From IMG/VR virus record IMGVR_UViG_3300036401_000102, positions 2,723-66,722 of that record: DNA of 64,000 nt, one strand, 5' to 3'. Each line of letters opens with the position of its first letter. Positions within the stretch are counted from its first letter, which is position 1. This DNA comes from a virus. The position numbers and the translations under genes are program-made. Of the stretch, positions 1,155-21,778 are shown in pieces. Under the pieces are notes generated by a model, which was not told the DNA's origin, made no database searches, and saw nothing but the letters and a program-made list of their open reading frames with translations.

Positions 1155-1540
1155 TCAACACGGCTCGACTTCGATGCCGCGAATGAACTTATGTTCGTTG
1201 CCGACCTGATCCTCGGCAGTACGAACGGTGACGCGCCCGAGCCGAGGCACGCGCTTTTCTTCATCGCGAATCACCTTGTAACGTGTCCCGCCGGCACCCA
1301 TGCCATAGCCGCCGATCGGCAAATCCATAATATTCATGGCCCGCTTCCTGCCTCTCAACGCGCCGCTGGGCTTCGCTGCCACGGCCACGACTGAATTTTG
1401 AAACCGCCGCTGAAGCCGAAAATTGCCCACCAGAGCGAGTAATTTTCATGACGCCATCCGATCTGGCATCGCCGTAGATTCGCACGGCTGAACCAAATCC
1501 ATCCGCCATTGTAGGGCGAGTGCCAAAGCCTGATGTGCAT
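1155..1540 (-). CDS. Two small hypothetical proteins (1355-1540 and 1155-1337)
   Basis: Short ORFs, each preceded by an SD-like sequence (CAGGAG; GGCAGGAAG); co-oriented with the accessory cassette. Confidence 0.4.
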
Positions 1541-1563
1541 TGTTGACTCCTGTATATTGCGGC

Positions 1564-1842
1564 TCAGTCCGCCGTGATCGCATCGCGCTTGAGGATGCTG
1601 TCGATCATCCATTCATATCCGCAGAAACGGTTGGTGGCCTTCTCGCGCGGTGACGCCTCTCGGACGCGCACGGCAGCAACCCAGCCGTCGCCGAAGCTGT
1701 ATGTGTACCTGGGCTTCAACGCCTCAGCCTTCGCGGCTGGGAGTGTCTTGGCCACCGTGTAGGTGTTGCCTGCTCCGCTCCATTTGCCGTCCCATGAATT
1801 GTTCGACGGCATCGACAACTCGAATATCACTCGCTTTCCCAT
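1564..1842 (-). CDS. Hypothetical phage protein
   Basis: 92-aa ORF with ACAGGAG SD and protein-like composition. Confidence 0.7.
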   Translation of the reverse strand: MGKRVIFELSMPSNNSWDGKWSGAGNTYTVAKTLPAAKAEALKPRYTYSFGDGWVAAVRVREASPREKATNRFCGYEWMIDSILKRDAITAD

Positions 1843-1878
1843 CGTTCTCTCCTGTGGTGGTGACGACGCATCAACGCG

Positions 1879-2259
1879 TCAGTGTCCATCGATGTAGAAG
1901 GCATCCGGTTCATGTCGAGGCTCGTCTTCCTCGCCACGCTGACACTTGGCGGGCTCAAGATCGTCCTTTCCGAAGTGGTCACGCGCCTCTTCGTCGTTCG
2001 TCGCGACAAAGCCGCAGTGATAGCAGCACCAGATTTTGGTCGCCGCCGCCCAACGCCGCGCTAGGATCAGCGGATTGTGGTGGCAAAACTCGGCGGTGTG
2101 GCCGGAGTCCTCGCAGACCGAACAGCAGATATGCCGGCACTCGGCTTGCCGTTTGGCGTTCTGTAGGTCGGCGATAGCTTCATCGTAGTCCGCATCTGTG
2201 ATCGGACCTTCGCGGTAGCAGACACCTGCTTCAATCGTCATGGCGCGTGTATTCCCCAT
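1879..2259 (-). CDS. Hypothetical Cys/His-rich (zinc-binding) protein
   Basis: CSVC..GH...C and CYHC motifs. Confidence 0.65.
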   Translation of the reverse strand: MGNTRAMTIEAGVCYREGPITDADYDEAIADLQNAKRQAECRHICCSVCEDSGHTAEFCHHNPLILARRWAAATKIWCCYHCGFVATNDEEARDHFGKDDLEPAKCQRGEEDEPRHEPDAFYIDGH

Positions 2260-2271
2260 TATTGCGGCAGA

Positions 2272-2532
2272 TCAGGACTCGCGCCGTTTCTTGAGCCACC
2301 GATCATCGTGGCGGCGCATCAAATCCTTGATGCTCCATTCTGCCGCTAAGCGCACACCCTCAGGCGTGAGTGAGGCGTAGCCGTGCTCGTGCCACGCAAG
2401 CCCGGCGCGGCACAGTTCTCCGCGACCATTCTTGCTACAAACGTTGCCGTCCCAGGTTGGTCCGCTGACGTATAGCTGGCCGAGCATTTCAACAGCGGCG
2501 GGAGAAAGCGCATTGGTCGCGAAGGCTGTCAT
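2272..2532 (-). CDS. Hypothetical protein
   Basis: ORF starting MTAFATN; start overlaps the upstream stop (ATGA coupling). Confidence 0.6.
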   Translation of the reverse strand: MTAFATNALSPAAVEMLGQLYVSGPTWDGNVCSKNGRGELCRAGLAWHEHGYASLTPEGVRLAAEWSIKDLMRRHDDRWLKKRRES

Positions 2533-2885
2533 CGTTCCTGTCCTTTCGGTTTTCGCCAAAGCAGACCGCCGGGGTGTTGCGGGTAGATATCGTGCCCGTC
2601 CTGCACCATCGCGTGCCCATCGGGCCACTCGCCAGAATAGGTGCATTTGAAAATACCGGTTGATCCAATCTGGACGACCTCAAATTCACTGCCGTCCTTC
2701 GGGCAATAGATACCGTCGTTGAAGCCCATTTCCCGAAGCCGCTGATAGGCTTCCCAAAGGACGGCAAGCGTTGCGTTTAGAGATGGCATTGCGACGCGGC
2801 GTGCCTGAGCCGACTTCAACGATTTGTCCCAAAGCTCGCTGATCTTCTCGTCTTGGGAGGTGGCTTGCATCGCCATAGCGTTCAT
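2529..2885 (-). CDS. Hypothetical phage protein
   Basis: 118-aa ORF with GGAG SD; 'YCPKDGSEF' motif. Confidence 0.65.
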   Translation of the reverse strand: MNAMAMQATSQDEKISELWDKSLKSAQARRVAMPSLNATLAVLWEAYQRLREMGFNDGIYCPKDGSEFEVVQIGSTGIFKCTYSGEWPDGHAMVQDGHDIYPQHPGGLLWRKPKGQER

Positions 2886-2897
2886 CTCCGGTTATTG

Positions 2898-3389
2898 CTA
2901 CGCCGCCTTGGCGTTCGCCTGTAACTCTGCTCGGACTTCCATCCAGAGCTTGCCGAGCATATTCTGGCCGATGCGGTCTGAGCCCCAACCCCAGAAATCG
3001 TCCCGCCAACTGTTCTCGATCAATGTGCGTTCGCCGGTCGCCAGCAGCTTCCGCCGCACGTATTCGTGCTGATCGGCCTTGGCGCGGAGAATGTTGCGCA
3101 TCACATTGACTTTCACGTCATCCCAATCAGCCCGTCTGGCTGACCGATACTTCTCCGCGATCTTGAATGCCTCATGTGCCGAAGGCGCCTCGCGGATCAA
3201 TGCCGCGACGCCGGGGCTGTCGGGCATGAATTTGCACCAATGGTAGGCCGCCTCTGATGTGTCGAAGCGCAGCGCCTTTTTGTGGTCCACAGGCCACTGC
3301 AGGGTGAATGCCGAGAAGTTCGACAGGACATAGAAGTCCTGCTCGTAGAAGAACACCTGCCGCTCGTTGTCGAGCCCGTGACATTCCAT
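2898..3389 (-). CDS. NADAR family protein (YbiA/DUF1768; ADP-ribosyl/N-glycosidase fold)
   Basis: LSNF, TSEAAYHWCKF, RADWDDVK..VM, KADQH, LLATG...LIENS..D.FWG and GQNMLGKLWMEVR motifs. Confidence 0.9.
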   Translation of the reverse strand: MECHGLDNERQVFFYEQDFYVLSNFSAFTLQWPVDHKKALRFDTSEAAYHWCKFMPDSPGVAALIREAPSAHEAFKIAEKYRSARRADWDDVKVNVMRNILRAKADQHEYVRRKLLATGERTLIENSWRDDFWGWGSDRIGQNMLGKLWMEVRAELQANAKAA

Positions 3390-3419: not shown

Positions 3420-3635
3420 CTATGCGCGCCAATTGACGGCGATCACCATCGCTCCGAATACGATTGCGGCGAATAATATGCCACCTCCCACGACCGCCGT
3501 GAGGGCGCGCAGTTTGATCTCATACGAGAGCGGGCCTCCGAATCCAGGGATGCATACCCATGCTATTCCGCCCGCGCTCGCTGCGATCAGTACGTAGGCG
3601 CTTAGTCCTCTAAGAATGTCGGCGGCAAACTGCAT
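3420..3635 (-). CDS. Small two-TM membrane protein
   Basis: Two hydrophobic stretches; AGGAGAGG SD. Confidence 0.6.
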   Translation of the reverse strand: MQFAADILRGLSAYVLIAASAGGIAWVCIPGFGGPLSYEIKLRALTAVVGGGILFAAIVFGAMVIAVNWRA

Positions 3636-3657
3636 CTGTCCTCTCCTGGCCCGGTGG

Positions 3658-3867
3658 TTAGGCGGCCGGTTCCAGCCGCTGCGCTCCGCACGTCAGGGCG
3701 AAATAGGCTTTCTCGCCGGTCACGTCATGAACGACATCGCAGCGCCCATGATTGTCTGCGGTGCAGGCTTCGACGGTCACCACGTCGCCGAGCTTTGCAA
3801 ACCCAGGTGCACCCATGCCGGTGATCTTAAGCTTGTCGCCGGATTTTACTTTCGCGTAGTCGATCAT
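3658..3867 (-). CDS. Small hypothetical protein (SH3-like beta composition)
   Basis: ORF starting MIDYAKVKSGDK with ACAGGAGG SD. Confidence 0.6.
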   Translation of the reverse strand: MIDYAKVKSGDKLKITGMGAPGFAKLGDVVTVEACTADNHGRCDVVHDVTGEKAYFALTCGAQRLEPAA

Positions 3868-3960
3868 TCTCGCCTCCTGTGGCGGCACCCTGCCGGTCTG
3901 ACGATAGCCAATCGTCGCGCACCGTGCCATAGGAGGGATATCCTAGCGCGGGGGCGGTTG

Positions 3961-4419
3961 ATGGACGCCAAAGAGCAAGCCGAGCGCGCCACCGTGGTCG
4001 CCGAGGCGCGGAGTTGGGTTGGGTGTCCGTATCATCATCAAGCTCGGCTCAAAGGTGTGGGGATAGATTGTGCGACACTGCTCGCGGCCGTTTTTGAAAA
4101 CTGCGGCCTCGTCGCTCCGGTCGACATCCCGAACTACTCGCCGCAATGGTTCATGCATCAGGACGCCGAGCTTTACATGGAGCGCGTGCTCCAGCACGCC
4201 AAGGCGACGGACGACCCCAAGCCGGGCGATGTCGCGCTCTGGAAGATCGGCAAATGCTTCGCGCACGGCGCCATCATCGTGGCCCCGGGCTGGCCCGCCA
4301 TCATTCACGCCTATAAACCGGCCGGACTTGTGCTAGAAGCCAAGGGAACCGATGCGTCCCTGATGACGCACTACAAGTCAGGGAAACCACGCGAGGTCAA
4401 ATTCTTCACGCGGTGGTGA
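3961..4419 (+). CDS. NlpC/P60 family tail-tip peptidase
   Basis: ARSWVGCPYHHQ...GIDC and HGAI...IIHA catalytic motifs; lies directly before the central tail protein. Confidence 0.92.
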   Translation: MDAKEQAERATVVAEARSWVGCPYHHQARLKGVGIDCATLLAAVFENCGLVAPVDIPNYSPQWFMHQDAELYMERVLQHAKATDDPKPGDVALWKIGKCFAHGAIIVAPGWPAIIHAYKPAGLVLEAKGTDASLMTHYKSGKPREVKFFTRW

Positions 4420-4423
4420 CCCG

Positions 4424-7400
4424 ATGTCATGGATTTTCAGTCCCGATTCTCAGGTCAACAATACCGCGCCGGTCCCGTCGCCCGGATTGCGCATCCAGAA
4501 TGCGGTTCAGGGTATTCCTATCCCGTTGCTGCTGGCGGGACAGCAGCGGTTCGCCGGCAACCTGATCTATTACAACGATTTCAAGGCGACATCGCAGGAC
4601 AATAGCCCCAGCGGATCCGGCAAGGGTAGCGTGGGTGGTGGCGGCGGCGGCAAAGGCGCGACGTCGAGTAACGTCACCTATACTTACAGCGCGGCGTTCA
4701 TCATGGCGCTATGCGAGGGACCGGTCTCGGGCATCCTGTCGGTCTGGAACAACAAGACGAACCAGACGCTCGGCGATCTCAATCTCGTGGCGTTCGTGGG
4801 CACGACAACACAGACCGCATGGGGCTACGTCGTGGCGGCACATCCCGCCGACGCGCGCGCGTATCGCGGCATCGCCTACGCGGCGGCGGGGCCATTCGAG
4901 ATGGGCAACACGGACCAGTTGCCCAATCTGAGTTTCGAAGTCATTGCGGTCAACGCCAACGTGATCGCCGGTCTTCCGGATGGCGATGTGTCGCAAGCCG
5001 TGGCCGACCTTTTCATCTCGGCGTATTTCGGTGTTGGCTTTCCGGCTTCCCGCTGGGCCGATCAAACGGACTGGTCAAACTACTCGCGCGCCGCCGGCAT
5101 GGTGGTCTCTCCGATCCTGAACAGCCAGACCGACGCGGCATCGATCGCGCGCGACATGATCGAATACACGAACTGCGATGCGCGATGGTCGTCCGGGCTT
5201 TTGAAGATCGTACCGCGCGCCGCTGGCGTCATTTCCGGAAACGGTTATCGCTATGACCCAAACCTGACGCCGATCTACGATTTTACGGTGAATGATTTCC
5301 TGCCCAATCAAGGGTCGATGGGCACGAAAGGAAGCGGAACGGTCCCGCTTGTGGTGTCGCGTACGCCACAGGTCGACATGATCAACAACGTGAAGGTCGA
5401 ATATCTCGACCGCACGAACTCCTACAATCCGGTCGCGATAGAGCGCAAGGACGAGGCTGCGATCATCGCGTTTCGTGAGCGGCCGTCGTCAAGCAAATCG
5501 TTGCATTTCTTCTGTGATGCGAACGCGGCTGGCATGGCGGCGTCGCTCCGGCTGATTCGCGAGCGCATCGCACGCACGTATCAGTGGACCGCAGGGCGGC
5601 GGTTCATTCTGCTGGACTGCACCGACCTTGTCACGGTGACCGATCCGAGCCGCAACATCGTGCGGCAATTGGTGCGCATCACGGAAATTCAGGAGGCGCC
5701 GGACAGGACGCTAATCTTCACGGCAGAGGAATGGCCGGGGACGGCACAGCCCCCGCTTTACGGGCATCAGGCTTCATCGGGATACGTGCCGAACCTCAAC
5801 GCCGACCCGGGCGGCATCAATGATCCTATCATCTTCGAGCCGACCGACGCGCTCGGCGGCGGACTGCAAATCTGGGGCGGCATCTCGGGCCAGGACAAGA
5901 CGCTATGGGGCGGCGCCGACATATTCGCGTCGTACGACAACATTAACTACCAGCGGGTCGGCCGCGTGCTCGGTCCGGCGCGCGCGGGGGCGCTCACGTC
6001 ATTGCTGCTCAACGTTGCGATCAATCCGACTGGACAGACCATCGACGCGGCGAATGTATTGAAGGTTGATCTGTCCGCATCGGGCGGAACGCTTTCATCC
6101 GGCACGCAGCTTGACGCCACGTCGCTCAATACCATGAGTTATGTCGACGGAGAGGTGATCGCGTATCAGACAGCGACGCTGACCGGCCCTAATGCTTACA
6201 GCCTCACCTATTTGGTGAGGGGGGCATTCGATACGCCGATCGGTGGGCACGCCATCGGGACGCAGTTCCTGCGGCTTGACAATTCCGTGTTCAAGGTGCC
6301 GTTCGATCAGACCCGCATTGGGTCTACGATCTATCTCAAGTTTCAGAGCTTCAACATCTGGGGCGGTGGGGCGCCTCAACTCGCCGACCTCAATCCGTAC
6401 ACCTATGTCATCCAGGGCACGGCGCTGGCATCGCCGCTTCCGAACGTCACCGATCTGCGCACGGTGTTCGTGGACGGCTTCACCAATCTGGATTGGACCG
6501 AGGTCACGGACTTCCGTCAGGTGCGCTATGAGATCAGGCTTGGCGCGGCGTGGGACTCGGCGCTCTCGCTTGGCACCGTGGCGCATCCGCCGTTCGTCGT
6601 GCCGGGCCTCGGCACCTACTGGGTTTCCGCCGTGTCCCAGCCGGCCGCCGGGCTCATCGTTTACAGCGAAGTACCGCAGTCAGTCACGATAGCCGGCGCG
6701 ATGCTGGTGCAGAACGTGGTGGCGATATGGGACGAGAAGGCGACGGGCTGGAGCGGATCGTTCACCGGTGGCTCTGGCATCGACGTTTCGCTGAACGCCA
6801 TACGCACAGGCGGCTCGGGTGACGTGCTGACGCAGACGGATTTCCTGAATATCACCGATATTCTGACGATGGGCGGAAACCAGAACGGCACGTACGAAAT
6901 TCCGTCAACGCATGTGATCGATGCGGGGTTCACGGTCAACGCTGCGGTGTCGGTGAAGTGGCTCCCGACTGGAGTCCCTGTCGGTCAGGATATCTTGGGC
7001 GTTGGTGACTTCCTCGGAATGCCCGACGTGCTCGGCTCTGCATCGACGCGCTTCATCGACGTGTTTCCGGAGATCAGGGTCGGCGACTTCGTCGGCGATC
7101 TCTACGCAGATGGCGATCTCTACGAACAGTTTGATCTCTATCGCGACACGACATGGAGTGCGTGGCAGCGGTTCACGCCCGGCGTCTATCGCGGCCGGTT
7201 TTTCGATTTCCGTATGCAGTTGCAGACCATCGATCCGCAGACCATCGCCTACGCGCTGGAGTTCAGCTTTACGGTGGACGTACCGGACCGAGTCGACACG
7301 TTCACCAACCTGACCGTGCTCGCGGCGGGTAACACCGTGACGTTCCAGCCGAACGGCGCGGCCTCTCCGGCCCCGTTCACGGGCGGCCCGAACGGCGCCA

Positions 7401-7552
7401 CGGTGCCATTGATCCAAATCACGATATTGGATGAGCAGTCCGGCGACCGGGCATCGATCACGGGCGAGACGCTGGCCCAATGCACGGTCCAGATAATCAA
7501 TGCTGGTGTCGGCGTTCAAAGACGGGTAAATCTCACCGCTCAAGGATACTAG
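4424..7552 (+). CDS. Central tail-tip / host-specificity protein (lambda J / GTA megatron-like)
   Basis: 1042 aa; 'G.PIP...G..R.AGNLIY', 'ALCEGP', 'YRGIAY', 'LPNLSFEV', 'L.RG..DT....H..G' motifs. Confidence 0.88.
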   Translation: MSWIFSPDSQVNNTAPVPSPGLRIQNAVQGIPIPLLLAGQQRFAGNLIYYNDFKATSQDNSPSGSGKGSVGGGGGGKGATSSNVTYTYSAAFIMALCEGPVSGILSVWNNKTNQTLGDLNLVAFVGTTTQTAWGYVVAAHPADARAYRGIAYAAAGPFEMGNTDQLPNLSFEVIAVNANVIAGLPDGDVSQAVADLFISAYFGVGFPASRWADQTDWSNYSRAAGMVVSPILNSQTDAASIARDMIEYTNCDARWSSGLLKIVPRAAGVISGNGYRYDPNLTPIYDFTVNDFLPNQGSMGTKGSGTVPLVVSRTPQVDMINNVKVEYLDRTNSYNPVAIERKDEAAIIAFRERPSSSKSLHFFCDANAAGMAASLRLIRERIARTYQWTAGRRFILLDCTDLVTVTDPSRNIVRQLVRITEIQEAPDRTLIFTAEEWPGTAQPPLYGHQASSGYVPNLNADPGGINDPIIFEPTDALGGGLQIWGGISGQDKTLWGGADIFASYDNINYQRVGRVLGPARAGALTSLLLNVAINPTGQTIDAANVLKVDLSASGGTLSSGTQLDATSLNTMSYVDGEVIAYQTATLTGPNAYSLTYLVRGAFDTPIGGHAIGTQFLRLDNSVFKVPFDQTRIGSTIYLKFQSFNIWGGGAPQLADLNPYTYVIQGTALASPLPNVTDLRTVFVDGFTNLDWTEVTDFRQVRYEIRLGAAWDSALSLGTVAHPPFVVPGLGTYWVSAVSQPAAGLIVYSEVPQSVTIAGAMLVQNVVAIWDEKATGWSGSFTGGSGIDVSLNAIRTGGSGDVLTQTDFLNITDILTMGGNQNGTYEIPSTHVIDAGFTVNAAVSVKWLPTGVPVGQDILGVGDFLGMPDVLGSASTRFIDVFPEIRVGDFVGDLYADGDLYEQFDLYRDTTWSAWQRFTPGVYRGRFFDFRMQLQTIDPQTIAYALEFSFTVDVPDRVDTFTNLTVLAAGNTVTFQPNGAASPAPFTGGPNGATVPLIQITILDEQSGDRASITGETLAQCTVQIINAGVGVQRRVNLTAQGY

Positions 7553-7569: not shown

Positions 7570-9216
7570 ATGTCGCAATTTCTGGCCCGAATCCTCGTCG
7601 CTCTTTCGGTCCTTTGCGCCACGACTGCCCAAGCCACCCAGACATCGCTCGTCACGCCCGGCCCGCCGCTCACGATGGCGAACCTCGCGACGTTCCTCAA
7701 CAATGCGTTTCTGACCTTGGGCGGCTGTAGCTCGGGCGCGTCCGCTCCCGCCCCGGTCGCATCCGCTCCGATCGTTTATCAGTGCTGGATCGACACGACG
7801 GCTAACCCACGCATCGTCAAAATCTATGACGGCGCGAACTGGGTCAGCGTCGCGAACCTCGACGTGTCGGCGCATACCTATCAGCCGATCATCGCGACGA
7901 TCAAGAACGGGTCCGGCACGATCACGCTTCCGACCACGACCGACACGTTGATGGGGCGTGCCACGACCGACACGATGACCGGGAAAACGTACGACACGGC
8001 GGGCTCCGGCAACTCGTTCCTGATCAATGGACTTGCCGCGACTGCGAACACTGGAACAGGGGCAGTCGTGCGCGCCGCTGCGCCAATCGTGACAGGAGGA
8101 ACGTTTCAATCTCTTGCGGCTGTCAGCCTTGCCAATAGCGGGTTTAATTTTGATTTTGTCGTAGGCGATACGTTAAGTGCCAATAGGTCGGTTACGTTCA
8201 AGGGAAACAATGTCAATCGGACAATAGACCTCAGCGGAAACGTCACCACTGGCGGCGCGTTCGTTACCGGTGGAGCGTTGACGCTTCCTGCCATTCTTCA
8301 AGGCGATCTGATGTACGGGTCGTCATCTGGCGGCATGTCGGCGCTGAACAAAAATACGACGGCGTCGCGATATCTCGCCAACACCGGCACGACGAACAAC
8401 CCCGCGTGGGATCAGGTCGACCTCACCAACGGTGTCAAGAATGCCCTCCCGGTCGCGAACGGCGGAACGAACGCATCGTCAGCGAGCGGCACTGCCGTCG
8501 ACAATATCAGCGGGTTTGCGTCCACCGGAATCATGTCGCGCACGGGCGCCGGGACATACACGTTCTCGACACTGACCGCGCTGATGGATAGCGGGCTGTG
8601 CTCGACGCAGGGCGATATCATTTTCCGAGGCGCGTCGACTTGGTCGTGCCTCGCTACGGCTGTGGCCGGCAACGTCCTTACGACGCAGGGCGCTGGCAAT
8701 AACCCGACATGGACATCAGTCGGTGGCACCGGCACGGTCACGAGCGTCATTTGTGGCAGCGTCACGATCACAACGACCGGAACATGCTCATCGCCGTACT
8801 TCTCCGCAAATCTATCTGCATCTTCCGGCTCGATCACGAACGGAACCCCGACGAAGATTCAATTCAATACAGAGACGAACGACAGCAACGGATGGTACGA
8901 CAACGCCACCAATTTTCGGTTCACGCCGTTACTGGCTGGCCGCTATCGCGTTGTGGTCAACGTGGAATGTGACGGCACAACGATCTCAGGGTGCTATGCC
9001 TACATTTACAAGAACGGGTCGCAGTTTGCTTACATCCCGACGCAAGCCCCGGGTGCCACTTTTGGGACATCGTCTGTAAGCGCAATCATTCAGATGAACG
9101 GCAGCACTGATTTCGTTGAGGGGTGGGGGCGCATCAATGGAACAGGAACTTTGACATTCAATGGGCAGACCGCTCCCGTTGTAACCACGTTCGCTGCAAA
9201 CTTTATTTCACCGTAG
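7570..9216 (+). CDS. Tail fibre-like protein with N-terminal signal peptide and C-terminal C1q-like domain
   Basis: Gly/Thr/Ser-rich repeats (LPVANGGT, GDIIFRGASTW); C-terminal F.P..AG.Y...GS.D.VE pattern; N-terminus MSQFLARILVALSVLCATTAQA. Confidence 0.75.
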   Translation: MSQFLARILVALSVLCATTAQATQTSLVTPGPPLTMANLATFLNNAFLTLGGCSSGASAPAPVASAPIVYQCWIDTTANPRIVKIYDGANWVSVANLDVSAHTYQPIIATIKNGSGTITLPTTTDTLMGRATTDTMTGKTYDTAGSGNSFLINGLAATANTGTGAVVRAAAPIVTGGTFQSLAAVSLANSGFNFDFVVGDTLSANRSVTFKGNNVNRTIDLSGNVTTGGAFVTGGALTLPAILQGDLMYGSSSGGMSALNKNTTASRYLANTGTTNNPAWDQVDLTNGVKNALPVANGGTNASSASGTAVDNISGFASTGIMSRTGAGTYTFSTLTALMDSGLCSTQGDIIFRGASTWSCLATAVAGNVLTTQGAGNNPTWTSVGGTGTVTSVICGSVTITTTGTCSSPYFSANLSASSGSITNGTPTKIQFNTETNDSNGWYDNATNFRFTPLLAGRYRVVVNVECDGTTISGCYAYIYKNGSQFAYIPTQAPGATFGTSSVSAIIQMNGSTDFVEGWGRINGTGTLTFNGQTAPVVTTFAANFISP

Positions 9217-9226
9217 AGAGGCCGCC

Positions 9227-9493
9227 ATGATCAGGTTTGTAATTGCATTCTCTCTTTGGCTCTGGCCTCTCGGTGCCATCGGTGAGCCTGGGCCGCTGCA
9301 GCAAAAGATTGAGTCATTCCTCGGCAAGAGCGGGAAAAAAGTCGACTTCAATGCGCGGCGACCGCTTGTCGAAATGGAAAACCAGTCCAACGGGAGAGGC
9401 GACTACATCGCAAAATGGGATAACACGCTCGGCGCAGTTCCGACTGCGGCCGATGGTTTCACGGATTACGAACTGCACAGGATTAAAAAATGA
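9227..9493 (+). CDS. XkdW-like tail fibre accessory protein with hydrophobic leader
   Basis: 'NQSNGRGDYIAKWDNTLGAVPT' resembles the XkdW core; follows the fibre gene. Confidence 0.55.
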   Translation: MIRFVIAFSLWLWPLGAIGEPGPLQQKIESFLGKSGKKVDFNARRPLVEMENQSNGRGDYIAKWDNTLGAVPTAADGFTDYELHRIKK

Positions 9494-10605
9494 TTTCCCG
9501 TCGCCAGCTACTTCGCTCATCGCTTGCTTCTGCCACTCTGATCGCCATGCCCGCTATCGCACGCGCATCTATCAATCCTCCATTCTGGTCGCCGAGCAAC
9601 GCCGACACAGCTTCGATCAATGCGGCTATCGCGCTCGCCGCGCCGACCGGCGGCGACGTGCTCTGCCCGGCTGGTGTCTACAGCGTGACCGGCAAGATCA
9701 TCGGCGCGCCTGGCGTGCATCTGCGCGGCTCGCGCAAGGGCACAATCATCCGGCTGACGTCGATGATGCAGGACTACCTGATCGACGGGGGTAGCCCGAA
9801 GTCCACCGCGCCGCCTCCATGCGACGGCTTTCAGGTTTCCAATATGACGCTTGACATGGGCGCATTCGATCCCGTCGACGATGATGGAAACACGGGCGGC
9901 AGCGGCGCAGTTTTCATCGCCGGGAATGCGAGTGCTGCGTTCAATCTGGATATTATCCACTGTGGTCGCTACGGCATCGTGTCGAACAACCTGATCACGC
10001 GCAATCTGCGCATCCAGGGCAACAACATAACGCGCGACGTTCCGACCGGAGCATCCACCAATATCGGCATCATGCTTCATGGTGACAGTCGCGCTCACCC
10101 GGAAAGCGCGAACTATCGGGCCTTCATTTGCGACAATTTCCTGTCCGGGACACCGATTACCCTGATGGTGAGAGACAGTTTCGTATCACGCAATCAGGTG
10201 ATCGGCTCAAAATACGGAGCTGGCATATGCTTTGACGCCAATGTCCAGTGCACCAACAATCTGATCGAGAGCAACATTTGCACTGACGGGGTCGGCACCG
10301 ACTACAACAACACGCGCGTGTCCGGGATCGAGTGCTGGGCCGTGTCCAGCGCGCTCAAGAACAACTATACGGCACGTAATTTCGGCCCCGGACTCGCTCA
10401 GGTTGGGTCGGACTGCGATATCATCGGCCACCGCGCCGACAGCAACCAAAGCGGCGGGATTATACTATTCGATTTTCCCGGTATGCTCGCGGCGGCGCGG
10501 TGCTTTGTTGACGGATGCAGGACGCAAGGAAACTCCCTCTATGGGTTTTTTGCTTCGGCATCAATCGCCCCGACGATCACGATGGGCAGCAATGATTTCA
10601 GATAA
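9490..10605 (+). CDS. Right-handed beta-helix (pectate-lyase-like) depolymerase with Tat signal
   Basis: SRRQLL twin-arginine leader ending ARA; 'DTASINAAI...GGDVLCPAGVY' beta-helix cap; Asn/Ile/Gly ladder repeats. Confidence 0.75.
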   Translation: MISRRQLLRSSLASATLIAMPAIARASINPPFWSPSNADTASINAAIALAAPTGGDVLCPAGVYSVTGKIIGAPGVHLRGSRKGTIIRLTSMMQDYLIDGGSPKSTAPPPCDGFQVSNMTLDMGAFDPVDDDGNTGGSGAVFIAGNASAAFNLDIIHCGRYGIVSNNLITRNLRIQGNNITRDVPTGASTNIGIMLHGDSRAHPESANYRAFICDNFLSGTPITLMVRDSFVSRNQVIGSKYGAGICFDANVQCTNNLIESNICTDGVGTDYNNTRVSGIECWAVSSALKNNYTARNFGPGLAQVGSDCDIIGHRADSNQSGGIILFDFPGMLAAARCFVDGCRTQGNSLYGFFASASIAPTITMGSNDFR

Positions 10606-10617
10606 CGAGGGACGAAC

Positions 10618-12078
10618 ATGATTCGCCGCACACTGGTCTCCGCTGCAGTTCTTCTATCCGTTATGCTTGGTGCGTCTGCCGCGCTTGCGTCGCAGGGCTC
10701 GGGTTGCATGCCGACCACGGGCACGGTGTCGGGCCTCACGCTCGTCACCGACATCAACGCCGGCATCAAGGCGCTGATCTCCAGTAATTCGGGGTCATCG
10801 GCCCCGGCGACGGACTGCAGCGGTCTATCGCTCGCGGGACAGTTCTGGCTCGACACATCGACCACGCCCTACGTGCTCAAAAACTACGACGGCACGTCGT
10901 GGCTCACGCTCGGCACGATGGACAACACGAACCACGTTTGGACCCCGCCGATCGGCGGCGGTACGAACTCGGTGACGGCGGCGGGCACGACGGATCTGTG
11001 CTCCGTGCCGCAGGGCTACGTCACGATATCGGGCAACACGACGATTACGGCGTTCGGTTCGTCCTGTGTCGCGGGCCAGATCAAATATCTGAACTTCACC
11101 GGAACGCCCCAGGTCACTTATAACGGGACGAGCCTGATCATTCCCGGTGCGGCCACGATCACGGTGGCGGCGGGAGATCAAGCCGTTGCGGCATACCTCG
11201 GCTCGGGAAACTGGCGCATCGTGTCTTATACCCCGACGTCGGGACAGGCGCTCGTCAACCCATCATTTCCAGCGGGCTTCGCTGCCTATGGTTTTGCGTT
11301 CACGGCACCGAGCGGATGGGCACTGTCATACGGGCAGAACGTCTCGCGCGCGACCTTTGCAACGCTGCTCTCCGCGACCACATTGGCGCAGAGTGGGGTG
11401 CGAACGTCTGGTAGCCCGATCATAACGAGCTTGAGCGATACGTCACAGTTTCGAGGTAACCAGCCGGTGGAGGGGACGGGCATCCCGGGCGGAACCCTGA
11501 TCCTCACGGTCGACAGCGGAACGCAAATCACGCTGAACGCCAACGCGACATCATCCGGAACGAGTACCGTAACAGTATTTCCGAACGGGAACGGCGACGG
11601 GTCGACCACATTCGGTCTTCCCGACTGCCGCAGCGTCGTGATGGCTGGGCGCGGCAATATGGGAGGGTCGAATCGCAACTTGTTGACTAACACTTACCTC
11701 CAAGCGTCCGGAACTGGCCTAGGCGCGTTCGGTGGAGTTGACCATCAGACAATCGGCACCGCAAATCTCCCTCCCTATACGCCCACTGGAAATGTTCAGT
11801 CTTTCACTCCGGCCGGAACTATAAGCGCCCCAACAATAACGCTCAGTGCGGCGGCGACCAATGTCGTTAATTCGTCTTCCGGTGGCGGTGCCAACCTCAC
11901 TGGCGGCGGCGGTGCGCTTCTTCAAGGCACAATCACAGCGTCAGCATCTACCCCCGTATTCACAGGCAACTTGCTGGCGCCAAACTTTATCGGCATCGCG
12001 CAGGGAGGCACGAGCACTCCTATCGCGACCGTGCAGCCGACCATCATCGCGAACTGCTTCATCAAACTGACGAACTGA
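10618..12078 (+). CDS. Tail fibre protein with tail-collar domain and N-terminal signal peptide
   Basis: APSGW...GQNVSRATFATL and GDGSTTFGLPD.R collar motifs; C-terminal 'VQPTIIANCFIK'; leader MIRRTLVSAAVLLSVMLGASAALA. Confidence 0.8.
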   Translation: MIRRTLVSAAVLLSVMLGASAALASQGSGCMPTTGTVSGLTLVTDINAGIKALISSNSGSSAPATDCSGLSLAGQFWLDTSTTPYVLKNYDGTSWLTLGTMDNTNHVWTPPIGGGTNSVTAAGTTDLCSVPQGYVTISGNTTITAFGSSCVAGQIKYLNFTGTPQVTYNGTSLIIPGAATITVAAGDQAVAAYLGSGNWRIVSYTPTSGQALVNPSFPAGFAAYGFAFTAPSGWALSYGQNVSRATFATLLSATTLAQSGVRTSGSPIITSLSDTSQFRGNQPVEGTGIPGGTLILTVDSGTQITLNANATSSGTSTVTVFPNGNGDGSTTFGLPDCRSVVMAGRGNMGGSNRNLLTNTYLQASGTGLGAFGGVDHQTIGTANLPPYTPTGNVQSFTPAGTISAPTITLSAAATNVVNSSSGGGANLTGGGGALLQGTITASASTPVFTGNLLAPNFIGIAQGGTSTPIATVQPTIIANCFIKLTN

Positions 12079-12081
12079 GCC

Positions 12082-12951
12082 ATGCGCCATCCCTTCGAGA
12101 CGTTGAAAGCCGATTATGCCGCGCTGTGGGCGTCGATGGTGTTCACGCGCACCGTGGAGATCGAGCGCGAGGCCGCGAAGCTGATCGGCTACCGCGACCG
12201 CTATGAGACCGTGTCGAACGCGACGCGCGTCCCGGTGATCTGGATCGCCGTGATCCACAATCGCGAGAGCAACGCGCGGTTCGATACCTACCTCGGCAAC
12301 GGGCAGGCGCTGGACAAGGTCACGACCATCGTGCCGAAGGGACGGGGACCGTGGGAAGGCGCCACGGCATGGCATGACGGCGCGGTTGATGCGATGCACC
12401 TCTTGGGGCTGGAAAAGGTCGCGGACCAGCCCGGCGGATGGTCGATCGAGCGGGCGCTATATCAGGCCGAACTCTGGAACGGGTTCGGGCCGCGCAACCA
12501 CGGCGTCAATACGGGCTACCTCTGGGCCGGAACGAATCAGTACGGGCCGCCGAGCGCCGCACCGGGGAAGTACGTGGCCGATGGGCGATGGGACGACCGC
12601 TACATTGATAGGCAGATCGGCGCGGCCCCGCTGATGCGGGCCATGGCCAAGATCGCGCCCGACCTCGCGCTCACCGGCATGGCTGTTGACGCAGCGCCCC
12701 GGCCCGCCGCCAAGACGCCGACGCCGGTCGGTATCGGCGGCATTCAGCACGATGCGGCGTGGGTGCAGCGCGCGCTGGTGAAGCTGGGCGCCGATATCGT
12801 TGTGGACGGATCCTACGGCAAGTGGACCGAGGCTGCGGTGCGAGAATTCCAAGAGCACGCCGCGCTTGACGTGGACGGCATCGCCGGCCCCAAGACGTTC
12901 GCTGCGCTTGAAAAGGCATTGACAGACAAGTTCCAGACAGCCGAAGTATAG
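12082..12951 (+). CDS. Endolysin (lysozyme-like domain plus C-terminal peptidoglycan-binding domain)
   Basis: IHNRES, E.WNGFG, YLWAGT.QY..GKYVADG; C-terminal VDGSYG..TEAAVREFQ...L.VDGIAGPKT. Confidence 0.9.
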   Translation: MRHPFETLKADYAALWASMVFTRTVEIEREAAKLIGYRDRYETVSNATRVPVIWIAVIHNRESNARFDTYLGNGQALDKVTTIVPKGRGPWEGATAWHDGAVDAMHLLGLEKVADQPGGWSIERALYQAELWNGFGPRNHGVNTGYLWAGTNQYGPPSAAPGKYVADGRWDDRYIDRQIGAAPLMRAMAKIAPDLALTGMAVDAAPRPAAKTPTPVGIGGIQHDAAWVQRALVKLGADIVVDGSYGKWTEAAVREFQEHAALDVDGIAGPKTFAALEKALTDKFQTAEV

Positions 12952-13163: not shown

Positions 13164-13901
13164 ATGTTCCGTCGCCTGATCACCGCCGCAGCGATGCTGT
13201 GTATCGTCTCCGCTCCCGCGTTCGCCGGGTCTGATAGCAAACTGCTGGCTTCGTTCCTGCCCATCTCGTCGGCCGAAGCGCAGACCGCCGCGCCACAGGC
13301 CCCGCTCGTCATCTCCAATCCATCGCCGGCAGCCACGACCACATCGACCGGCACGGTCACACCCACGTCAACGGTCACTGTGCCCCCGTCCGCGAACCCG
13401 ACGACTGTCGTGGTGCCGTCGACATCGGCGACCGAGACGCCGGCATGGCTGAACGGCGTTGCGCTGTTCGGCATCGCCATCACCATGGCTCTTGTCGGCT
13501 TTGGCATCGTGACGTTCAACAAGAAGATGGGGCTGGACCAGAATGCGTCCGTCATCGCGATCGAGACCCAGGCCCGCGACGCGCTGCACACCGCGCTGAC
13601 CAGCCTCGCAGGCCGCGTGCTGGTCGAACTTGGCCCGAAGGTCAATCAGGCGATCATGAACATTCAGAACCCGCTGATTCGGCAGGCCGCGCAGGATCTG
13701 CCCAACATGGCAGGTGACGCGCTCGCCATGTTCGGGATCACCAGTTCGGACGTGATGGCGCAGAAGATCATCGACAAGATCGGCGTCTTGACCGCGTCGA
13801 ACCCGACCGTGTTCCCGACGAGCAACCCGGCCGCCGCTCAGGCGCCCGCGCCGGTCTTGGCCAAGCCCGCCGTGGTGCCGGCCGCCGCTCCGGCGGCGTA
13901 A
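13164..13901 (+). CDS. Membrane protein of the lysis cassette (signal peptide, S/T/P-rich linker, TM helix; holin-like)
   Basis: MFRRLITAAAMLCIVSAPAFA leader, TM segment LNGVALFGIAITMALVGFGIV, position in cassette. Confidence 0.6.
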   Translation: MFRRLITAAAMLCIVSAPAFAGSDSKLLASFLPISSAEAQTAAPQAPLVISNPSPAATTTSTGTVTPTSTVTVPPSANPTTVVVPSTSATETPAWLNGVALFGIAITMALVGFGIVTFNKKMGLDQNASVIAIETQARDALHTALTSLAGRVLVELGPKVNQAIMNIQNPLIRQAAQDLPNMAGDALAMFGITSSDVMAQKIIDKIGVLTASNPTVFPTSNPAAAQAPAPVLAKPAVVPAAAPAA

Positions 13902-13905
13902 CGCC

Positions 13906-14163
13906 ATGCTGGCATCGATCGGGGCCAGCGCAGCGGCGTGGATGGCATCGCAGGGCGTCGGGCTCTTGCTCGGCTTCTTGGGCACCCTCATCAAGAACTG
14001 GATGGACGGGCAGCGCGCGGCTGCGGCCCAGGAGCAGCTTGGGGCGACCCGGGCTGCGAACGCGGTCAACGCCGAGACCGCCGCTGCGGAGCGCCGCGCC
14101 GCCGCTGTGGTGCCGCTGGATAGCGCCGCGACGGTGGACGCCCTCAATAAGGGAGCCTTCTGA
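13906..14163 (+). CDS. Inner-membrane spanin-like protein
   Basis: N-terminal TM followed by an Ala-rich helix; stop overlaps the start of a lipoprotein gene. Confidence 0.6.
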   Translation: MLASIGASAAAWMASQGVGLLLGFLGTLIKNWMDGQRAAAAQEQLGATRAANAVNAETAAAERRAAAVVPLDSAATVDALNKGAF

Positions 14164-14426
14164 TGTGGCGTATCGTCGCGCTTGTCTGCGCCGCCGTGGC
14201 CCTACCGGGATGCGCCATGCTCCAGACCCTGACCGAGCCCGGCGCCACGGTGGTGATCGCAAAGGTCCAGTGCCCGCCGCTCAAGACTTACGCAGCCGAT
14301 TTCCAGACCAAGGCAGCGGCGGAACGGAAGGCGCTGCCGGCGGGTTCTGCTGTCGGCACGTTGGTGGACGACTACGGCACGACGCGTGCAAAGTGCCGCG
14401 CCTACGAGGCCAAGCCTGCCCTTTAG
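14163..14426 (+). CDS. Outer-membrane spanin-like lipoprotein
   Basis: Lipobox LPG-C; 'CPPLKTY' and a C-terminal Cys. Confidence 0.7.
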   Translation: MWRIVALVCAAVALPGCAMLQTLTEPGATVVIAKVQCPPLKTYAADFQTKAAAERKALPAGSAVGTLVDDYGTTRAKCRAYEAKPAL

Positions 14427-14507
14427 TTGCGTGAATATATTTTTCACGCCTCGGTCGGTTTCTGCGTAGGATGTTCGGTAATATACTCCAGACCGCCGGA
14501 ACGCCCG

Positions 14508-14831
14508 ATGCTTGATTTGTCTCCCGAGTTTTGGAAGTGGATCGGCGGACAGATCGGCGTTCTGGTCATCGCTTACTTTGGCTTGAAGCAAACCGTCGCG
14601 GTCCTATCGACAAGGCACGATTCTTTGGAACAGAAGTTCGACGCAGAGAACAAGGAAATAAAAGAAAAGCTTGAGACGCTCAGCGACCTTCTTGTGAAAT
14701 CGGCCCGTTATGAGGAACGGCAGGCTCGCGCGGACGAGCATATTCTTTTGATCAGGAAAGACCTCGATGATATCAAGCATTACAAAGGGTTCGTCACAAG
14801 CGGCCCGGTCATCCCTCCGAGCGTTTCATAG
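14508..14831 (+). CDS. Membrane-anchored coiled-coil protein
   Basis: N-terminal TM then a heptad-like charged helix. Confidence 0.6.
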   Translation: MLDLSPEFWKWIGGQIGVLVIAYFGLKQTVAVLSTRHDSLEQKFDAENKEIKEKLETLSDLLVKSARYEERQARADEHILLIRKDLDDIKHYKGFVTSGPVIPPSVS

Positions 14832-16630: not shown

Positions 16631-16935
16631 GTGGCGCGTTTATCCTGCGTGACCGCGCCTTCAACTCCATCGAGCACAAGACGCATGAGGCGCACCCCCA
16701 AATCCCCGATCATTAAAGTTGCCAGTTGCTCGCGGGGCATTTCGAGCATCCGCTCAGTCCCGAACCGCTTGGCAAAGCAGCGCCCATGCCAGAAACCATC
16801 TCCGCTGCTGAGCATGCTGTTTTTGCCGCCGAGTTCCTGGCACTCAGAGCAGGTTCGCCACAAGCGAATCTCATGACACGTCTTCATCGGCAACAGTTTG
16901 TCGAACGGTCGCTGGCCTTTTTCAAATCGTGCCAT
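16627..16935 (-). CDS. Hypothetical zinc-binding protein
   Basis: CSEC and HGRC motifs; translationally coupled. Confidence 0.6.
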   Translation of the reverse strand: MARFEKGQRPFDKLLPMKTCHEIRLWRTCSECQELGGKNSMLSSGDGFWHGRCFAKRFGTERMLEMPREQLATLMIGDLGVRLMRLVLDGVEGAVTQDKRAT

Positions 16936-17680
16936 CGGTGCCCCGCTTCTGGGATGATATTGCGGCTCTCATGATTGCCCGCCCGATCGCTTCCGGGATT
17001 TGCGGGACGACGGCGTTCCCGAGGCCGTGTATACGGGCGCGCTCCATCGTAACGGAAAGCCCATCATCAGCTCGTAAGCTGTGGCAATAAGCTTCCAGTT
17101 CAACCCGCGTTCTAATAGCCTGGTGGCGGCGCTCGGCTGATGGCGTTGCCTCGATGCCAAGTGAACTGAGGTACTGGAAACGTCTTTGCCGTCCCTCGCG
17201 TTGGGGCTCGGCAACAATCCAGACCCGCTCACGGATGAAGGGTAGTCCGACATCGAGGCCGCGAAGCACTCGCCACTCAGCATCATACCCGAGGTCGGCC
17301 AGCGTTCCGAGAACTCTTCCCATCCCTCGATTAAGCAGCTCTGCGACGTTCTCCACGATGACGAACCGCGGTCGTAGTTCGCCAATAATTCTGGCGTACT
17401 CGAACCATAGTCCGCTGCGGGCACCATCGAGGCCGGCGCCTGTAACATTGGAAATTGACACGTCCTGGCAGGGGAAGCCGCCACAGATAAGGTCGACAGG
17501 TCCAACATCGCGACCTCGGAGGGTGGTGATATCTTTATGGATCGGAATGTCCGGCCAGTTTTCGGAAAGGATGGCCTGGCACCAAGGGTCGATTTCGCAG
17601 AACGCGACGGTTCGCATTCCGGCTCGTTCGAGCCCGAGGCTGAAACCGCCAATCCCGCTGAAAAGGTCGAGGACATTCAT
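16922..17680 (-). CDS. dcm: DNA (cytosine-5) methyltransferase, large (alpha) polypeptide
   Basis: Motif I DLFSGIGG, IV GGFPCQD, VI ENV, VIII RERVW, X LGNAVVPQ; no recognisable motif IX. Confidence 0.92.
   Translation of the reverse strand: MNVLDLFSGIGGFSLGLERAGMRTVAFCEIDPWCQAILSENWPDIPIHKDITTLRGRDVGPVDLICGGFPCQDVSISNVTGAGLDGARSGLWFEYARIIGELRPRFVIVENVAELLNRGMGRVLGTLADLGYDAEWRVLRGLDVGLPFIRERVWIVAEPQREGRQRRFQYLSSLGIEATPSAERRHQAIRTRVELEAYCHSLRADDGLSVTMERARIHGLGNAVVPQIPEAIGRAIMRAAISSQKRGTDGTI
16969..17508 (-). CDS. Putative nested beta polypeptide of the C5 methyltransferase (alternative frame)
   Basis: Frame is open across the whole dcm gene; contains LLPSPNARDGK and ends ELMMGFPLRWS (motif IX-like); GAGGT SD before the ATG at 17508. 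Confidence 0.6.
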   Translation of the reverse strand: MLDLSTLSVAASPARTCQFPMLQAPASMVPAADYGSSTPELLANYDRGSSSWRTSQSCLIEGWEEFSERWPTSGMMLSGECFAASMSDYPSSVSGSGLLPSPNARDGKDVSSTSVHLASRQRHQPSAATRLLERGLNWKLIATAYELMMGFPLRWSAPVYTASGTPSSRKSRKRSGGQS

Positions 17681-18060
17681 TTGGTCCGTTCATCGGCGAT
17701 TACTGCTACGGGCGGACGGGCTCTGAGGGCGGCATATGCCGAATCCAGAACCGCCATGCCTTCTCGATACAAATCGGCTTCCGCAGATTTTTCTGAAACA
17801 AGATCAAATTCGTCTCTCGCTTCGGTACAATTTGCGTACATCCGCCACTGCCGCAGCGCAGTATCCAGAGCTGAACACAATCGCTCCGTGCTGATGTCCT
17901 GCCACTCCTGCGCGGCCGGAATGGCCTTCATGCGCCGGTCTAGGTCAACGAGATCTGGCGCGCGGACATATCTGCTGCCCGGCGTATCCCACAAATTCCG
18001 ATCCCACTCGTTGAGAAGCGCAACGGCGTCTTCAGCAATTGCTTTGAACGTGTCGTCCAT
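17677..18060 (-). CDS. Hypothetical protein
   Basis: ORF starting MDDTFK with GGAGGG SD; stop coupled to the dcm start. Confidence 0.6.
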   Translation of the reverse strand: MDDTFKAIAEDAVALLNEWDRNLWDTPGSRYVRAPDLVDLDRRMKAIPAAQEWQDISTERLCSALDTALRQWRMYANCTEARDEFDLVSEKSAEADLYREGMAVLDSAYAALRARPPVAVIADERTK

Positions 18061-18077
18061 CTCACCCTCCGGCGCGT

Positions 18078-18521
18078 TTATTCGGCATGACTGCGCCGCT
18101 CCAAGATGAGCAGACCTCCGCGGGTTGTTCCGCAGCGTCTCCATCCAGCGGCCACAAAGCAGAAGCCCGGATTGCGGCTCCTGACTGCTTGCGAATTGAC
18201 GTATGTGTAGTGCCTCTCACGAGGCCAGCAGAAATCAGCAACGGCGTCAGCCTGTCGGATAAGCTCGGAAGATAGGTGGCGGCTTTCGTTTCGGAAGACG
18301 GCGCAGTTGATGCCTTCTTGCTTCGGGATCGCGTCGTCAATGAACTTTCGCCAGACGAACATGGCGTCGGCATCGCCTGTCCGAAGAACGACGTGTTCTC
18401 CGGGACCGACGAACTGGCTTCGCTTGCGACCGTCAGCGTAACGGTTGCAGCTGTAGTGCCGTTCGTAGAGTTCGAGGCAGGAGACATCGCCATCCTTCGT
18501 CACGTACCAGAGTGGTTCCAT
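18078..18521 (-). CDS. Conserved phage protein, possibly Mom/GNAT-like DNA-modifying acyltransferase
   Basis: RHYS, CAVFRNES..LSSELI, TYV and NPGFCFVAAGW; the last resembles the Mom-family G..y.aagW motif. Confidence 0.45.
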   Translation of the reverse strand: MEPLWYVTKDGDVSCLELYERHYSCNRYADGRKRSQFVGPGEHVVLRTGDADAMFVWRKFIDDAIPKQEGINCAVFRNESRHLSSELIRQADAVADFCWPRERHYTYVNSQAVRSRNPGFCFVAAGWRRCGTTRGGLLILERRSHAE

Positions 18522-18540
18522 TCAGTCCGCTATCTCGACA

Positions 18541-19191: not shown

Positions 19192-19203
19192 CATCGTCGG
19201 TCT

Positions 19204-20448: not shown

Positions 20449-20501
20449 CGTGTCGTCTCCATTGGGTTGGCGCAGCATGGCACTTCGCCGCGCGGGTGTC
20501 G

Positions 20502-20768: not shown

Positions 20769-20778
20769 GTTGACGGTC

Positions 20779-21750: not shown

Positions 21751-21778
21751 CGCTTGCTCCATCGGTTGCGTGGTGAGG

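Follow-up and report, generated by a model that had tools for sequence, protein, structure and literature searches.

Tailed-phage virions are taken to be built wholly in the cytoplasm. Why, then, do the tail fibre genes of a tailed phage begin with export signals? The question is raised by four genes of the IMG/VR virus record IMGVR_UViG_3300036401_000102. The window, which is the whole stretch of 64,000 nucleotides analysed here, covers bases 2723–66722 of this 66,722-bp record and represents nearly all of the phage genome, which has direct terminal repeats and a completeness rating of 100%. Two genes (fibre 1 and fibre 2) code for predicted tail fibres, and an open reading frame (ORF) of 88 residues and a gene for a beta-helix protein lie between them. 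A preliminary description of this DNA had proposed that the fibres are exported, fold oxidatively in the periplasm and join the virion at or after lysis. The leaders on the fibres of this phage and of more than 100 relatives from Bradyrhizobium-group soil bacteria suggest folding outside the cytoplasm, by a route undescribed for tailed phages.

Predicted signal peptides of the two tail fibres

The four genes lie on the plus strand and fill the space between the stop codon of a J-like protein gene (7552) and an endolysin-like gene, with gaps of at most 17 nucleotides. The features of this region are as follows.

4424–7552, plus strand: J-like tail-tip or host-specificity protein, 1042 residues, without a leader (Pfam Phage-tail_3 and Rcc01698_C; PHROG tail protein, 1e-72)
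7570–9216, plus strand: fibre 1 gene, with GGAG 6 nucleotides upstream of its ATG, which stands 17 nucleotides past the J stop codon
7570–7635, plus strand: predicted Sec-type signal peptide of fibre 1, 22 residues
7636–9216, plus strand: mature fibre 1, 526 residues, with an N-terminal attachment-type domain (7636–7905), a repeat shaft and a C-terminal head
9227–9493, plus strand: 88-residue ORF, with GAGAGG upstream
9490–10605, plus strand: beta-helix gene, 371 residues, its ATG overlapping the stop codon of the 88-residue ORF (ATGA)
9490–9567, plus strand: predicted leader of the beta-helix protein, of the twin-arginine translocation (Tat) type, 26 residues
9568–10605, plus strand: mature right-handed beta-helix protein, 345 residues
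10618–12078, plus strand: fibre 2 gene, with GAGGGA 5 nucleotides upstream of its ATG
10618–10689, plus strand: predicted Sec-type signal peptide of fibre 2, 24 residues
10690–12078, plus strand: mature fibre 2, 462 residues, with an N-terminal attachment-type domain (about 10696–10965), a shaft and a tail-collar domain

Judged by the rules for the n-, h- and c-regions of signal peptides, both fibres begin with Sec-like leaders, as the preliminary description had read from the sequence, and this observation is confirmed. The n-region is positively charged in both, with R7 in fibre 1 and an RR pair (R3 and R4) in fibre 2. It is followed by a hydrophobic core, which in fibre 1 is uncharged and reaches a best 11-residue Kyte-Doolittle mean of 2.6. 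The predicted cut lies behind an AxA triplet, namely AQA in fibre 1 and ALA, in front of SQGSGC, in fibre 2. A phage-wide scan for signal-like N-termini flagged 21 of 91 ORFs, many of them plainly falsely, and was dropped as evidence.

Conservation of the leaders

A search with the mature N-domain of fibre 2 (residues 25–130) found 184 proteins at E ≤ 0.001; the best 120 of these were used, and 119 relatives remained once the window's own entry was set aside. Among these best matches, 116 of 119 have a leader directly before the motif G-S/T-G-C-M-P-T-T-G, and P0254, outside the 116, has a leader with a variant motif behind it. The 116 leaders have a median length of 24 residues (range 19–64), and 115 of them carry K or R among the first 8 residues. 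The residue at position −1 is small in all 116 (Ala in 110), and that at position −3 is small or aliphatic in all 116 (Ala in 90). The best 10-residue hydropathy means of the leaders of fibre 2 relatives lie between 1.8 and 3.6. Averaged over pairs, identity in the last 18 leader residues is 0.32, or 0.27 when positions −3 to −1 are omitted, and rises to 0.77 over the first 40 mature residues. Such a conserved architecture with a drifting sequence and a sharp step at the AxA site indicates an element that evolves like a targeting signal. These alignments indicate that the leader is conserved as a feature and not as a sequence.

The same holds for the other fibre and for viral loci. Twelve relatives of the fibre 1 N-domain were chosen by a conserved Trp motif and by eye among 120 listed matches, and all 12 have a leader of the same architecture; the remaining matches in this list share the shaft repeat only. 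A scan of IMG/VR gave 17 loci (L001 and L005 being identical in sequence), and the primary fibre ORF bears a leader in 16 of them, the exception being the short contig L018. In 11 loci (L001 included) the first fibre gene has a neighbour with the same N-domain, each time with a leader, and with both copies counted 27 of the 28 fibre genes beside J in viral contigs are leader-bearing. The viral relative closest to the window's layout, L002, has a 297-residue glycine-rich protein between its fibres (9905–10798), with a signal-like leader and two early cysteines. The slot between the fibres varies, being filled by this protein in L002 and by the 88-residue ORF and the beta-helix gene in the window, and its occupants carry leaders in both. 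More leader-bearing ORFs are found downstream of the fibres in L007 and L011. The best match among cultured phages, Bradyrhizobium phage ppBdUSDA122-1, has leaders on both of its adjacent fibre genes.

The source names of some fibre 2 relatives include Bradyrhizobium, Tardiphaga, Nitrobacter and Bosea. Within the family that includes the Bradyrhizobium glycinis genome, 5 of 201 searched genomes have the N-domain, which marks it as a prophage-borne trait and not a host core gene; a genome scan with alignment A1, whose search pattern was narrow, gave 3 loci only. The copy on the Bradyrhizobium glycinis contig (L026/L028; ORF L026 5893–7329) has the mature domain with neither an in-frame upstream start codon nor a leader, and is probably a decayed prophage gene. 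A long N-terminal form is seen in 16 of the 116 fibre 2 relatives (for example P0142, P0147, P0148 and P0156) and also in L008 (6262–7878): a hydrophobic segment is followed by about 25–30 residues, with a conserved NDRGG...L.VGR stretch, and by a second AxA site. This form could be a membrane-anchored or two-step processed variant.

One explanation of the leaders would be that they are artefacts of start-codon choice, the true starts lying downstream. The database gene call for fibre 2 (P0135, 471 residues) does begin at Met16, with most of the signal peptide lost, and two fibre 2 relatives (P0198 and P0231) are called from an internal Met past the cut site. However, purine-rich ribosome-binding sites stand 5–7 nucleotides before the upstream ATGs of the four genes and none stands before Met16. 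The full leaders of the 116 relatives differ in sequence and agree in architecture, and many relatives have no alternative start between the leader and the conserved domain. Conservation of the leaders brings this explanation close to exclusion. The preliminary description had named downstream starts and loss of the leaders in homologues as outcomes that would undo its proposal; the leaders appear instead to be the true gene starts and are kept across the family. Automated start calls can conceal such leaders, which is a hazard for gene callers and annotation pipelines.

Homologues without a leader

The same N-domain occurs at the extreme N-terminus, without a leader, in fibres of the lytic Rhizobium phages RHph_I4 and RHph_TM16 and of Roseobacter phage CRP-831, each of which is encoded directly after a J protein. 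Further leaderless copies are L025 in an Ancalomicrobiaceae genome, L027 in a Micavibrio genome, L018, and L032 and L035, which are two genes of one other genome. These homologues begin at the predicted cleavage point of their leader-bearing relatives. L025, for example, starts with MSQ, which after removal of Met corresponds to the SQ that follows AxA in the leader-bearing relatives. Four homologues of the beta-helix protein, as called, likewise start with MNPPFW, at the predicted mature start of that protein (ARA-SINPPFW in the window). The junction between leader and mature part coincides with the predicted cleavage site, and the leader is, by this comparison, separable from the mature domain. 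Because the N-domain stands leaderless beside J elsewhere, it can be regarded as an ordinary N-terminal fibre domain to which the leader was added in one clade.

Cysteine pairs in the mature fibres

Mature fibre 1 contains 8 cysteines, which form four neighbouring pairs (53/72, 344/360, 395/406 and 467/475), and mature fibre 2 contains 6 in three pairs (30/67, 128/150 and 337/480). The preliminary description had placed paired cysteines in all four proteins; this stands for the two fibres but not for the mature 88-residue protein, which has no cysteine, or the beta-helix protein, which has 11. Even counts prevail among the relatives. Whole mature fibres have an even number of cysteines in 111 of 116 fibre 2 relatives and in 24 of 26 complete fibres of the viral loci, mostly as neighbouring pairs, and some viral-locus fibres have up to 18 cysteines in nine such pairs. 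This parity holds across unrelated C-terminal parts.

The cysteines of the N-domain go with the leader. Among 44 distinct leader-bearing N-domains, 41 have exactly two cysteines, three have none and not one has a single cysteine, whereas six of the eight leaderless N-domains have none, one has one, and one, from Micavibrio, has a pair (CRP-831 is among the eight, with its cysteines read by eye). The positions of the pair differ among sub-clades, both cysteines being gained or lost jointly. Consistently, distant fibre-like matches have even counts in 45 of 50 proteins with a leader compared with 34 of 70 without, and a mean cysteine content of 0.88% (n = 50) compared with 0.28% (n = 70); these classes were assigned by a crude rule, and about 7 of the 50 proteins called leader-bearing are wrongly so by eye. 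Raised cysteine density was discarded as an argument, other phage proteins being comparable. The cysteine signal, as read from these sequences, is one of parity, spacing and co-occurrence with the leader. This linkage of leader and cysteine pairs points to the periplasm, although paired cysteines alone are not proof of export.

These pairs also bear on whether the leaders go unused in the virion-bound form, either as a retained hydrophobic element or because an internal Met, Leu or Val start yields a cytoplasmic isoform. The fibres would then assemble in the cytoplasm and their disulfides would form only after release, as in phage Milano, whose virion proteins have many disulfides. Fibre 2 relatives have a conserved hydrophobic position, in most cases Met, 6 residues past the cut, where the two database calls mentioned above start, and the leaderless Micavibrio homologue has its Cys pair. 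However, an internal Met start would drop the first Cys of the conserved pair, no GGAG-type ribosome-binding site precedes the internal Met in the window, and the pair is missing in seven of the eight leaderless relatives. Moreover, the leaders conform to every rule for a cleavable signal while their sequence drifts (0.27–0.32 compared with 0.77 in the mature part), and drift next to a conserved mature part marks a targeting signal and not a structural element. Unused leaders are accordingly rated as quite improbable, and cleavage of an exported precursor is preferred.

The beta-helix protein and the 88-residue ORF

The leader of the beta-helix protein contains the twin-arginine motif SRRQLLR, a hydrophobic stretch and ARA, and the Tat motif named in the preliminary description (SRRQLL...ARA) is present. 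In the AlphaFold2 model (predicted local distance difference test, pLDDT, 82.6; predicted template-modelling score 0.84), residues 1–27 have a pLDDT below 50, the leader is disordered and the beta-helix begins at once after it. There is no N-terminal tail-attachment domain. The top Foldseek matches, at probability 1.00, are the A-modules of the mannuronan C-5 epimerases AlgE4 and AlgE6 (E 8e-8), and GH87 glucanases, an alginate epimerase/lyase and the phage tailspikes CBA120 TSP3 and HK620 also match at probability 1.00. The Pfam family PF12708 scores 24.8 bits, below its cut-off of 27. On this model the protein looks like a polysaccharide-active enzyme fold of the lyase, hydrolase or epimerase type. 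It is more plausibly a soluble polysaccharide enzyme, exported by Tat, than part of the virion, and the alternative given in the preliminary description, an exported depolymerase, agrees for this gene with the missing attachment domain and the modelled fold. Relatives were found neither in the viral contigs or JGI metagenome contigs searched nor in 401 searched genomes of the family to which the Bradyrhizobium glycinis genome (G001) belongs.

The 88-residue ORF begins with MIR followed by 15 hydrophobic residues, which may be either a signal peptide or a membrane anchor. The preliminary description had called this gene XkdW-like with a hydrophobic leader. The hydrophobic N-terminus, as such, is there; the label is unsupported, since searches of PHROGs and NCBIfam gave no match to the ORF, nor did Pfam with the limit relaxed to E ≤ 10. 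That its product is an exported fibre chaperone is speculation.

Attachment domain of the fibres and the J-like protein

Synteny, homology and the Collar domain identify both proteins as tail fibres, and their presence in the virion is predicted. Fibre 2 matches Pfam Collar (PF07484) with 29.5 bits (cut-off 24), PHROG 8763 ("tail protein") and, by tblastn, phage fibres. Fibre 1 matches a "tail fiber protein" of ppBdUSDA122-1 by tblastn, and its head resembles the heads of Pelagibacter-phage proteins, one matching record being annotated as C1q-like. The anchor-like domain which the preliminary description had seen in both fibres is borne out by alignments A1 and A2, in which a domain of about 90 residues right behind the leaders is common to the two. 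Its AlphaFold2 model has a pLDDT of 77.7 and no clear match in the Protein Data Bank (PDB; best Foldseek E 0.38, best VIA-align Z 4.2), and sequence searches of the PDB with fibre 1, fibre 2 and profile A2 gave chance-level matches only.

The fibre genes lie directly downstream of J in the window, and a J homologue is found directly upstream of them in L001–L017. Residues of about 668–1042 of J have homologous counterparts at the C-termini of the J proteins of RHph_I4, RHph_TM16 and CRP-831. The N-domain is the best-conserved part of the fibres and stands beside this homologous J C-terminus in leader-bearing and leaderless phages alike. The C-terminal third of J (about residues 663–1042) accompanies the fibre N-domain in conserved form in every case, and for this reason the fibres are presumed to dock there. 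A complex prediction for the J C-terminus (A4) with three fibre N-domains (A2) scored 0.27 against a mark of 0.32 and weighs neither way.

The fibres and the beta-helix protein might instead be exported and remain free, as receptor-binding trimers and a depolymerase in the periplasm, at the cell surface or in the lysate. They could mask or destroy the phage's own receptor so that progeny escape loss on debris, exclude superinfecting phages, or loosen exopolysaccharide to aid release. The missing attachment domain of the beta-helix protein and its likeness to bacterial polysaccharide enzymes that are periplasmic or secreted suit such a role, and the closest analogue in print, as far as the published description goes, is Pantoea WceF, a tailspike-like protein with a Tat signal. 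Adsorption may need no more than the J-like protein, the fibres are known here from genes alone and not from particles, and lambdoid phages carry exported accessory genes, such as lom, in the slot after J. However, the most conserved part of the fibres is the N-domain that lytic phages bear on leaderless fibres beside a homologous J, and a decoy would not need it. Furthermore, no other fibre gene follows J in ppBdUSDA122-1 or in most of the viral loci, so that freely secreted fibres are considered unlikely, though well within reach.

A proposed pathway of assembly in two compartments

Docking on the virion is the preferred fate of the fibres, and the pathway may be pictured as follows. The fibres would be synthesised as precursors with cleavable Sec-type signal peptides and cross unfolded into the periplasm, where signal peptidase I would cleave them at the AxA site. 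They would fold and trimerise there, with disulfides introduced by the host Dsb system. The beta-helix enzyme would fold in the cytoplasm and cross via the Tat pathway, and the 88-residue protein would likewise be exported or membrane-anchored, while heads and tails would be assembled in the cytoplasm as usual. When the lysis cassette breaks the envelope, the compartments would mix, and the oxidised fibres would dock by their conserved N-domain onto the C-terminal part of the J-like protein.

The steps of this pathway differ in strength. As far as sequence comparison can establish it, the leaders are real, conserved, separable and co-occurring with paired cysteines. Export and oxidative folding of the fibres, as proposed in the preliminary description, appear well supported by the conserved leaders, by the leaderless homologues that share the start of the mature part and by the even, pairwise cysteines; translocation and cleavage are rated as likely. 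Docking at or after lysis is a weaker proposal, for which the chances for and against are about equal; it is suggested by the retained attachment-type domain, its pairing with a homologous J C-terminus and the lack of another fibre gene after J in most loci. That the four genes form the distal fibre module of a complete tailed phage, built for export, and that the whole mechanism operates as described, is put at an even chance. It is possible, with the balance tipping somewhat to the other side, that a large clade of siphophages of Bradyrhizobium-group bacteria finishes its virions outside the cytoplasm, with fibres exported via Sec and a depolymerase via Tat, oxidised by Dsb, stored in the periplasm and added at lysis.

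Several observations weigh against this picture. No earlier case came to light of a tailed phage whose virion takes up a component via the periplasm. Virion proteins of Agrobacterium phage Milano are heavily disulfide-bonded, and the sections describing them mention no export step (PMC10811340). The words "tail fiber", "signal peptide" and "mass spectrometry" are absent from the main text of the mBio paper on ppBdUSDA122-1 (PMC10127595). The fibre cysteine density of 1.3–1.5% does not exceed the values for cytoplasmic phage proteins (terminase, 1.4%). The leaderless L027 (Micavibrio sp., a predatory alphaproteobacterium; 5731–7275) keeps its Cys pair, as the sole such leaderless case, and three leader-bearing N-domains have none. 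The sequences are related, which means that counts of leaders and cysteines are not independent events, and the crude leader rule also flags obvious non-signals. For the beta-helix leader, Pfam TAT_signal (PF10518) scores 19.2 bits (E 0.0011), under its cut-off of 22.7, and an NCBIfam search gave no match. Leaders of the NRRK(L/F)LL form occur in only three of the eight beta-helix homologues found, all in Logan assemblies; of the others, four start with MNPPFW as mentioned above and one is shorter, these apparently leaderless forms being provisional. The 88-residue ORF has no detectable relatives, with no usable Atlas match and no tblastn match in L001–L018.

If the picture is true, the existence of a conserved and widespread clade of secreted fibres would show the periplasm to be a possible site of maturation for part of a virion, and a tailed phage would have an assembly pathway in two compartments. 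Phage infectivity would then be tied to the Sec, Tat and Dsb functions of the host. This could explain disulfide-stabilised fibres of soil phages.

Neighbouring genes

Other features of the tail region and the lysis cassette are as follows.

100–1035: baseplate-hub protein (Pfam Phage_BR0599 and Gp84_N)
12082–12951, plus strand: endolysin-like protein with a peptidoglycan-binding domain (Pfam PG_binding_1; PHROG endolysin families)
13167–13901: lysis-cassette ORF with a signal peptide, a Pro/Thr-rich stretch and a transmembrane segment
13906–14163: 85-residue ORF, weakly holin-like (Phage_holin_6_1, E 0.097)
14163–14426: 87-residue lipoprotein with an LPGC lipobox, likely the outer spanin
14427–14831: 134-residue coiled-coil ORF after the lipoprotein

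The endolysin-like gene opens the lysis cassette, which would merge periplasm and cytoplasm. The genome also encodes a DnaB-like helicase, a large terminase, a portal, a head-morphogenesis protein and a major head protein. Its complete status, together with the distal tail module, indicates that the leader-bearing genes belong to a whole siphophage-type genome and form no stray island.

A block of small minus-strand genes (1155–3389) lies between the baseplate-hub gene and the gene preceding J. It includes a NADAR-domain gene (2898–3389; Pfam 4e-31) and resembles an accessory-gene island. The early region on the minus strand (16922–21762) encodes a C-5 cytosine DNA methylase (16922–17680), a RecT-like protein (19204–20478) and a PDDEXK-like DUF3799 protein (20779–21762), and an aminotransferase-like gene is found at 38849–40084. 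Two proteins of the structural region are very rich in cysteine, namely 3616–4419 (10 Cys in 267 residues) and 59961–60734 (12 Cys in 257 residues, with several C-x-x-C pairs), which suggests metal binding.

Comparison with known systems

Full-text literature searches found no description of signal peptides on tailed-phage fibres, which is not proof that there is none. The lack of signal peptides has even been argued, in a paper on phage diversity-generating retroelements, as a sign of the phage origin of a binding protein (PMC6199706).

The fibres of RHph_I4 and RHph_TM16 (annotated "tail collar domain-containing protein") and of CRP-831 have the same N-domain and the same gene position after a J with a homologous C-terminus, and the two Rhizobium phages share the collar-type C-terminus of fibre 2. 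In contrast to the window fibres, all three begin with the domain at residue 1, without a leader and without the Cys pair of the N-domain, and in RHph_I4 and RHph_TM16 a gene for a tail-fibre assembly protein lies downstream of the fibre.

The closest cultured relative, ppBdUSDA122-1, is described as a siphophage whose particles B. diazoefficiens USDA 122 releases spontaneously (PMC10127595). Its adjacent fibres WAX24264 and WAX24263 follow a tail protein, have signal-like leaders and paired cysteines, and are 40–46% identical to the window fibres over the matched parts. However, neither a beta-helix gene nor an 88-residue ORF lies between them, and an acyltransferase gene follows downstream.

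WceF of Pantoea stewartii is described as a trimeric tailspike-like glycosidase of 736 residues with a Tat signal, encoded on the chromosome in an exopolysaccharide gene cluster (PMC7949094). By that description it is, like the window protein, a polysaccharide enzyme with a twin-arginine leader and a right-handed beta-helix of tailspike-like fold. The window protein differs in being phage-encoded, in its mature length of 345 residues and in its place between two fibre genes.

Phage Milano resembles the window phage in having fibre and tail proteins with numerous disulfides, some of which are neighbouring intrachain pairs of the short tail fibre, and differs in that many bonds are inter-subunit and that signal peptides are not mentioned in the sections concerned (PMC10811340). 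Its fibre N-domain is helical and has no sequence match to the window fibres. The similar cysteine numbering of the Milano short tail fibre (29/67) and fibre 2 (30/67) was set aside as coincidence, the sequence matches being at chance level.

Signal-arrest-release endolysins are exported phage proteins that are not virion parts (PMC3556154). The Bdellovibrio fibre proteins (PDB 8ojn, 8oml and 8ond) are phage-fibre-like trimers exported by the cell, but they are bacterial predation proteins and lie outside a phage genome; comparison of these structures with the N-domain model gave Z values of 3.0–3.2, which are not meaningful. The Bdellovibrio proteins carry secretion signals. T5 Llp and lambda Lom and Bor are, like the endolysins, exported phage proteins outside the virion. 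Such exported non-virion proteins of phages are also routed through Sec, and some act on receptors, but none is a tail fibre or has a tail-attachment domain. What is new beside these systems is the export signal on tail fibres, an observation on firm ground for which the mechanism given above is a proposal.

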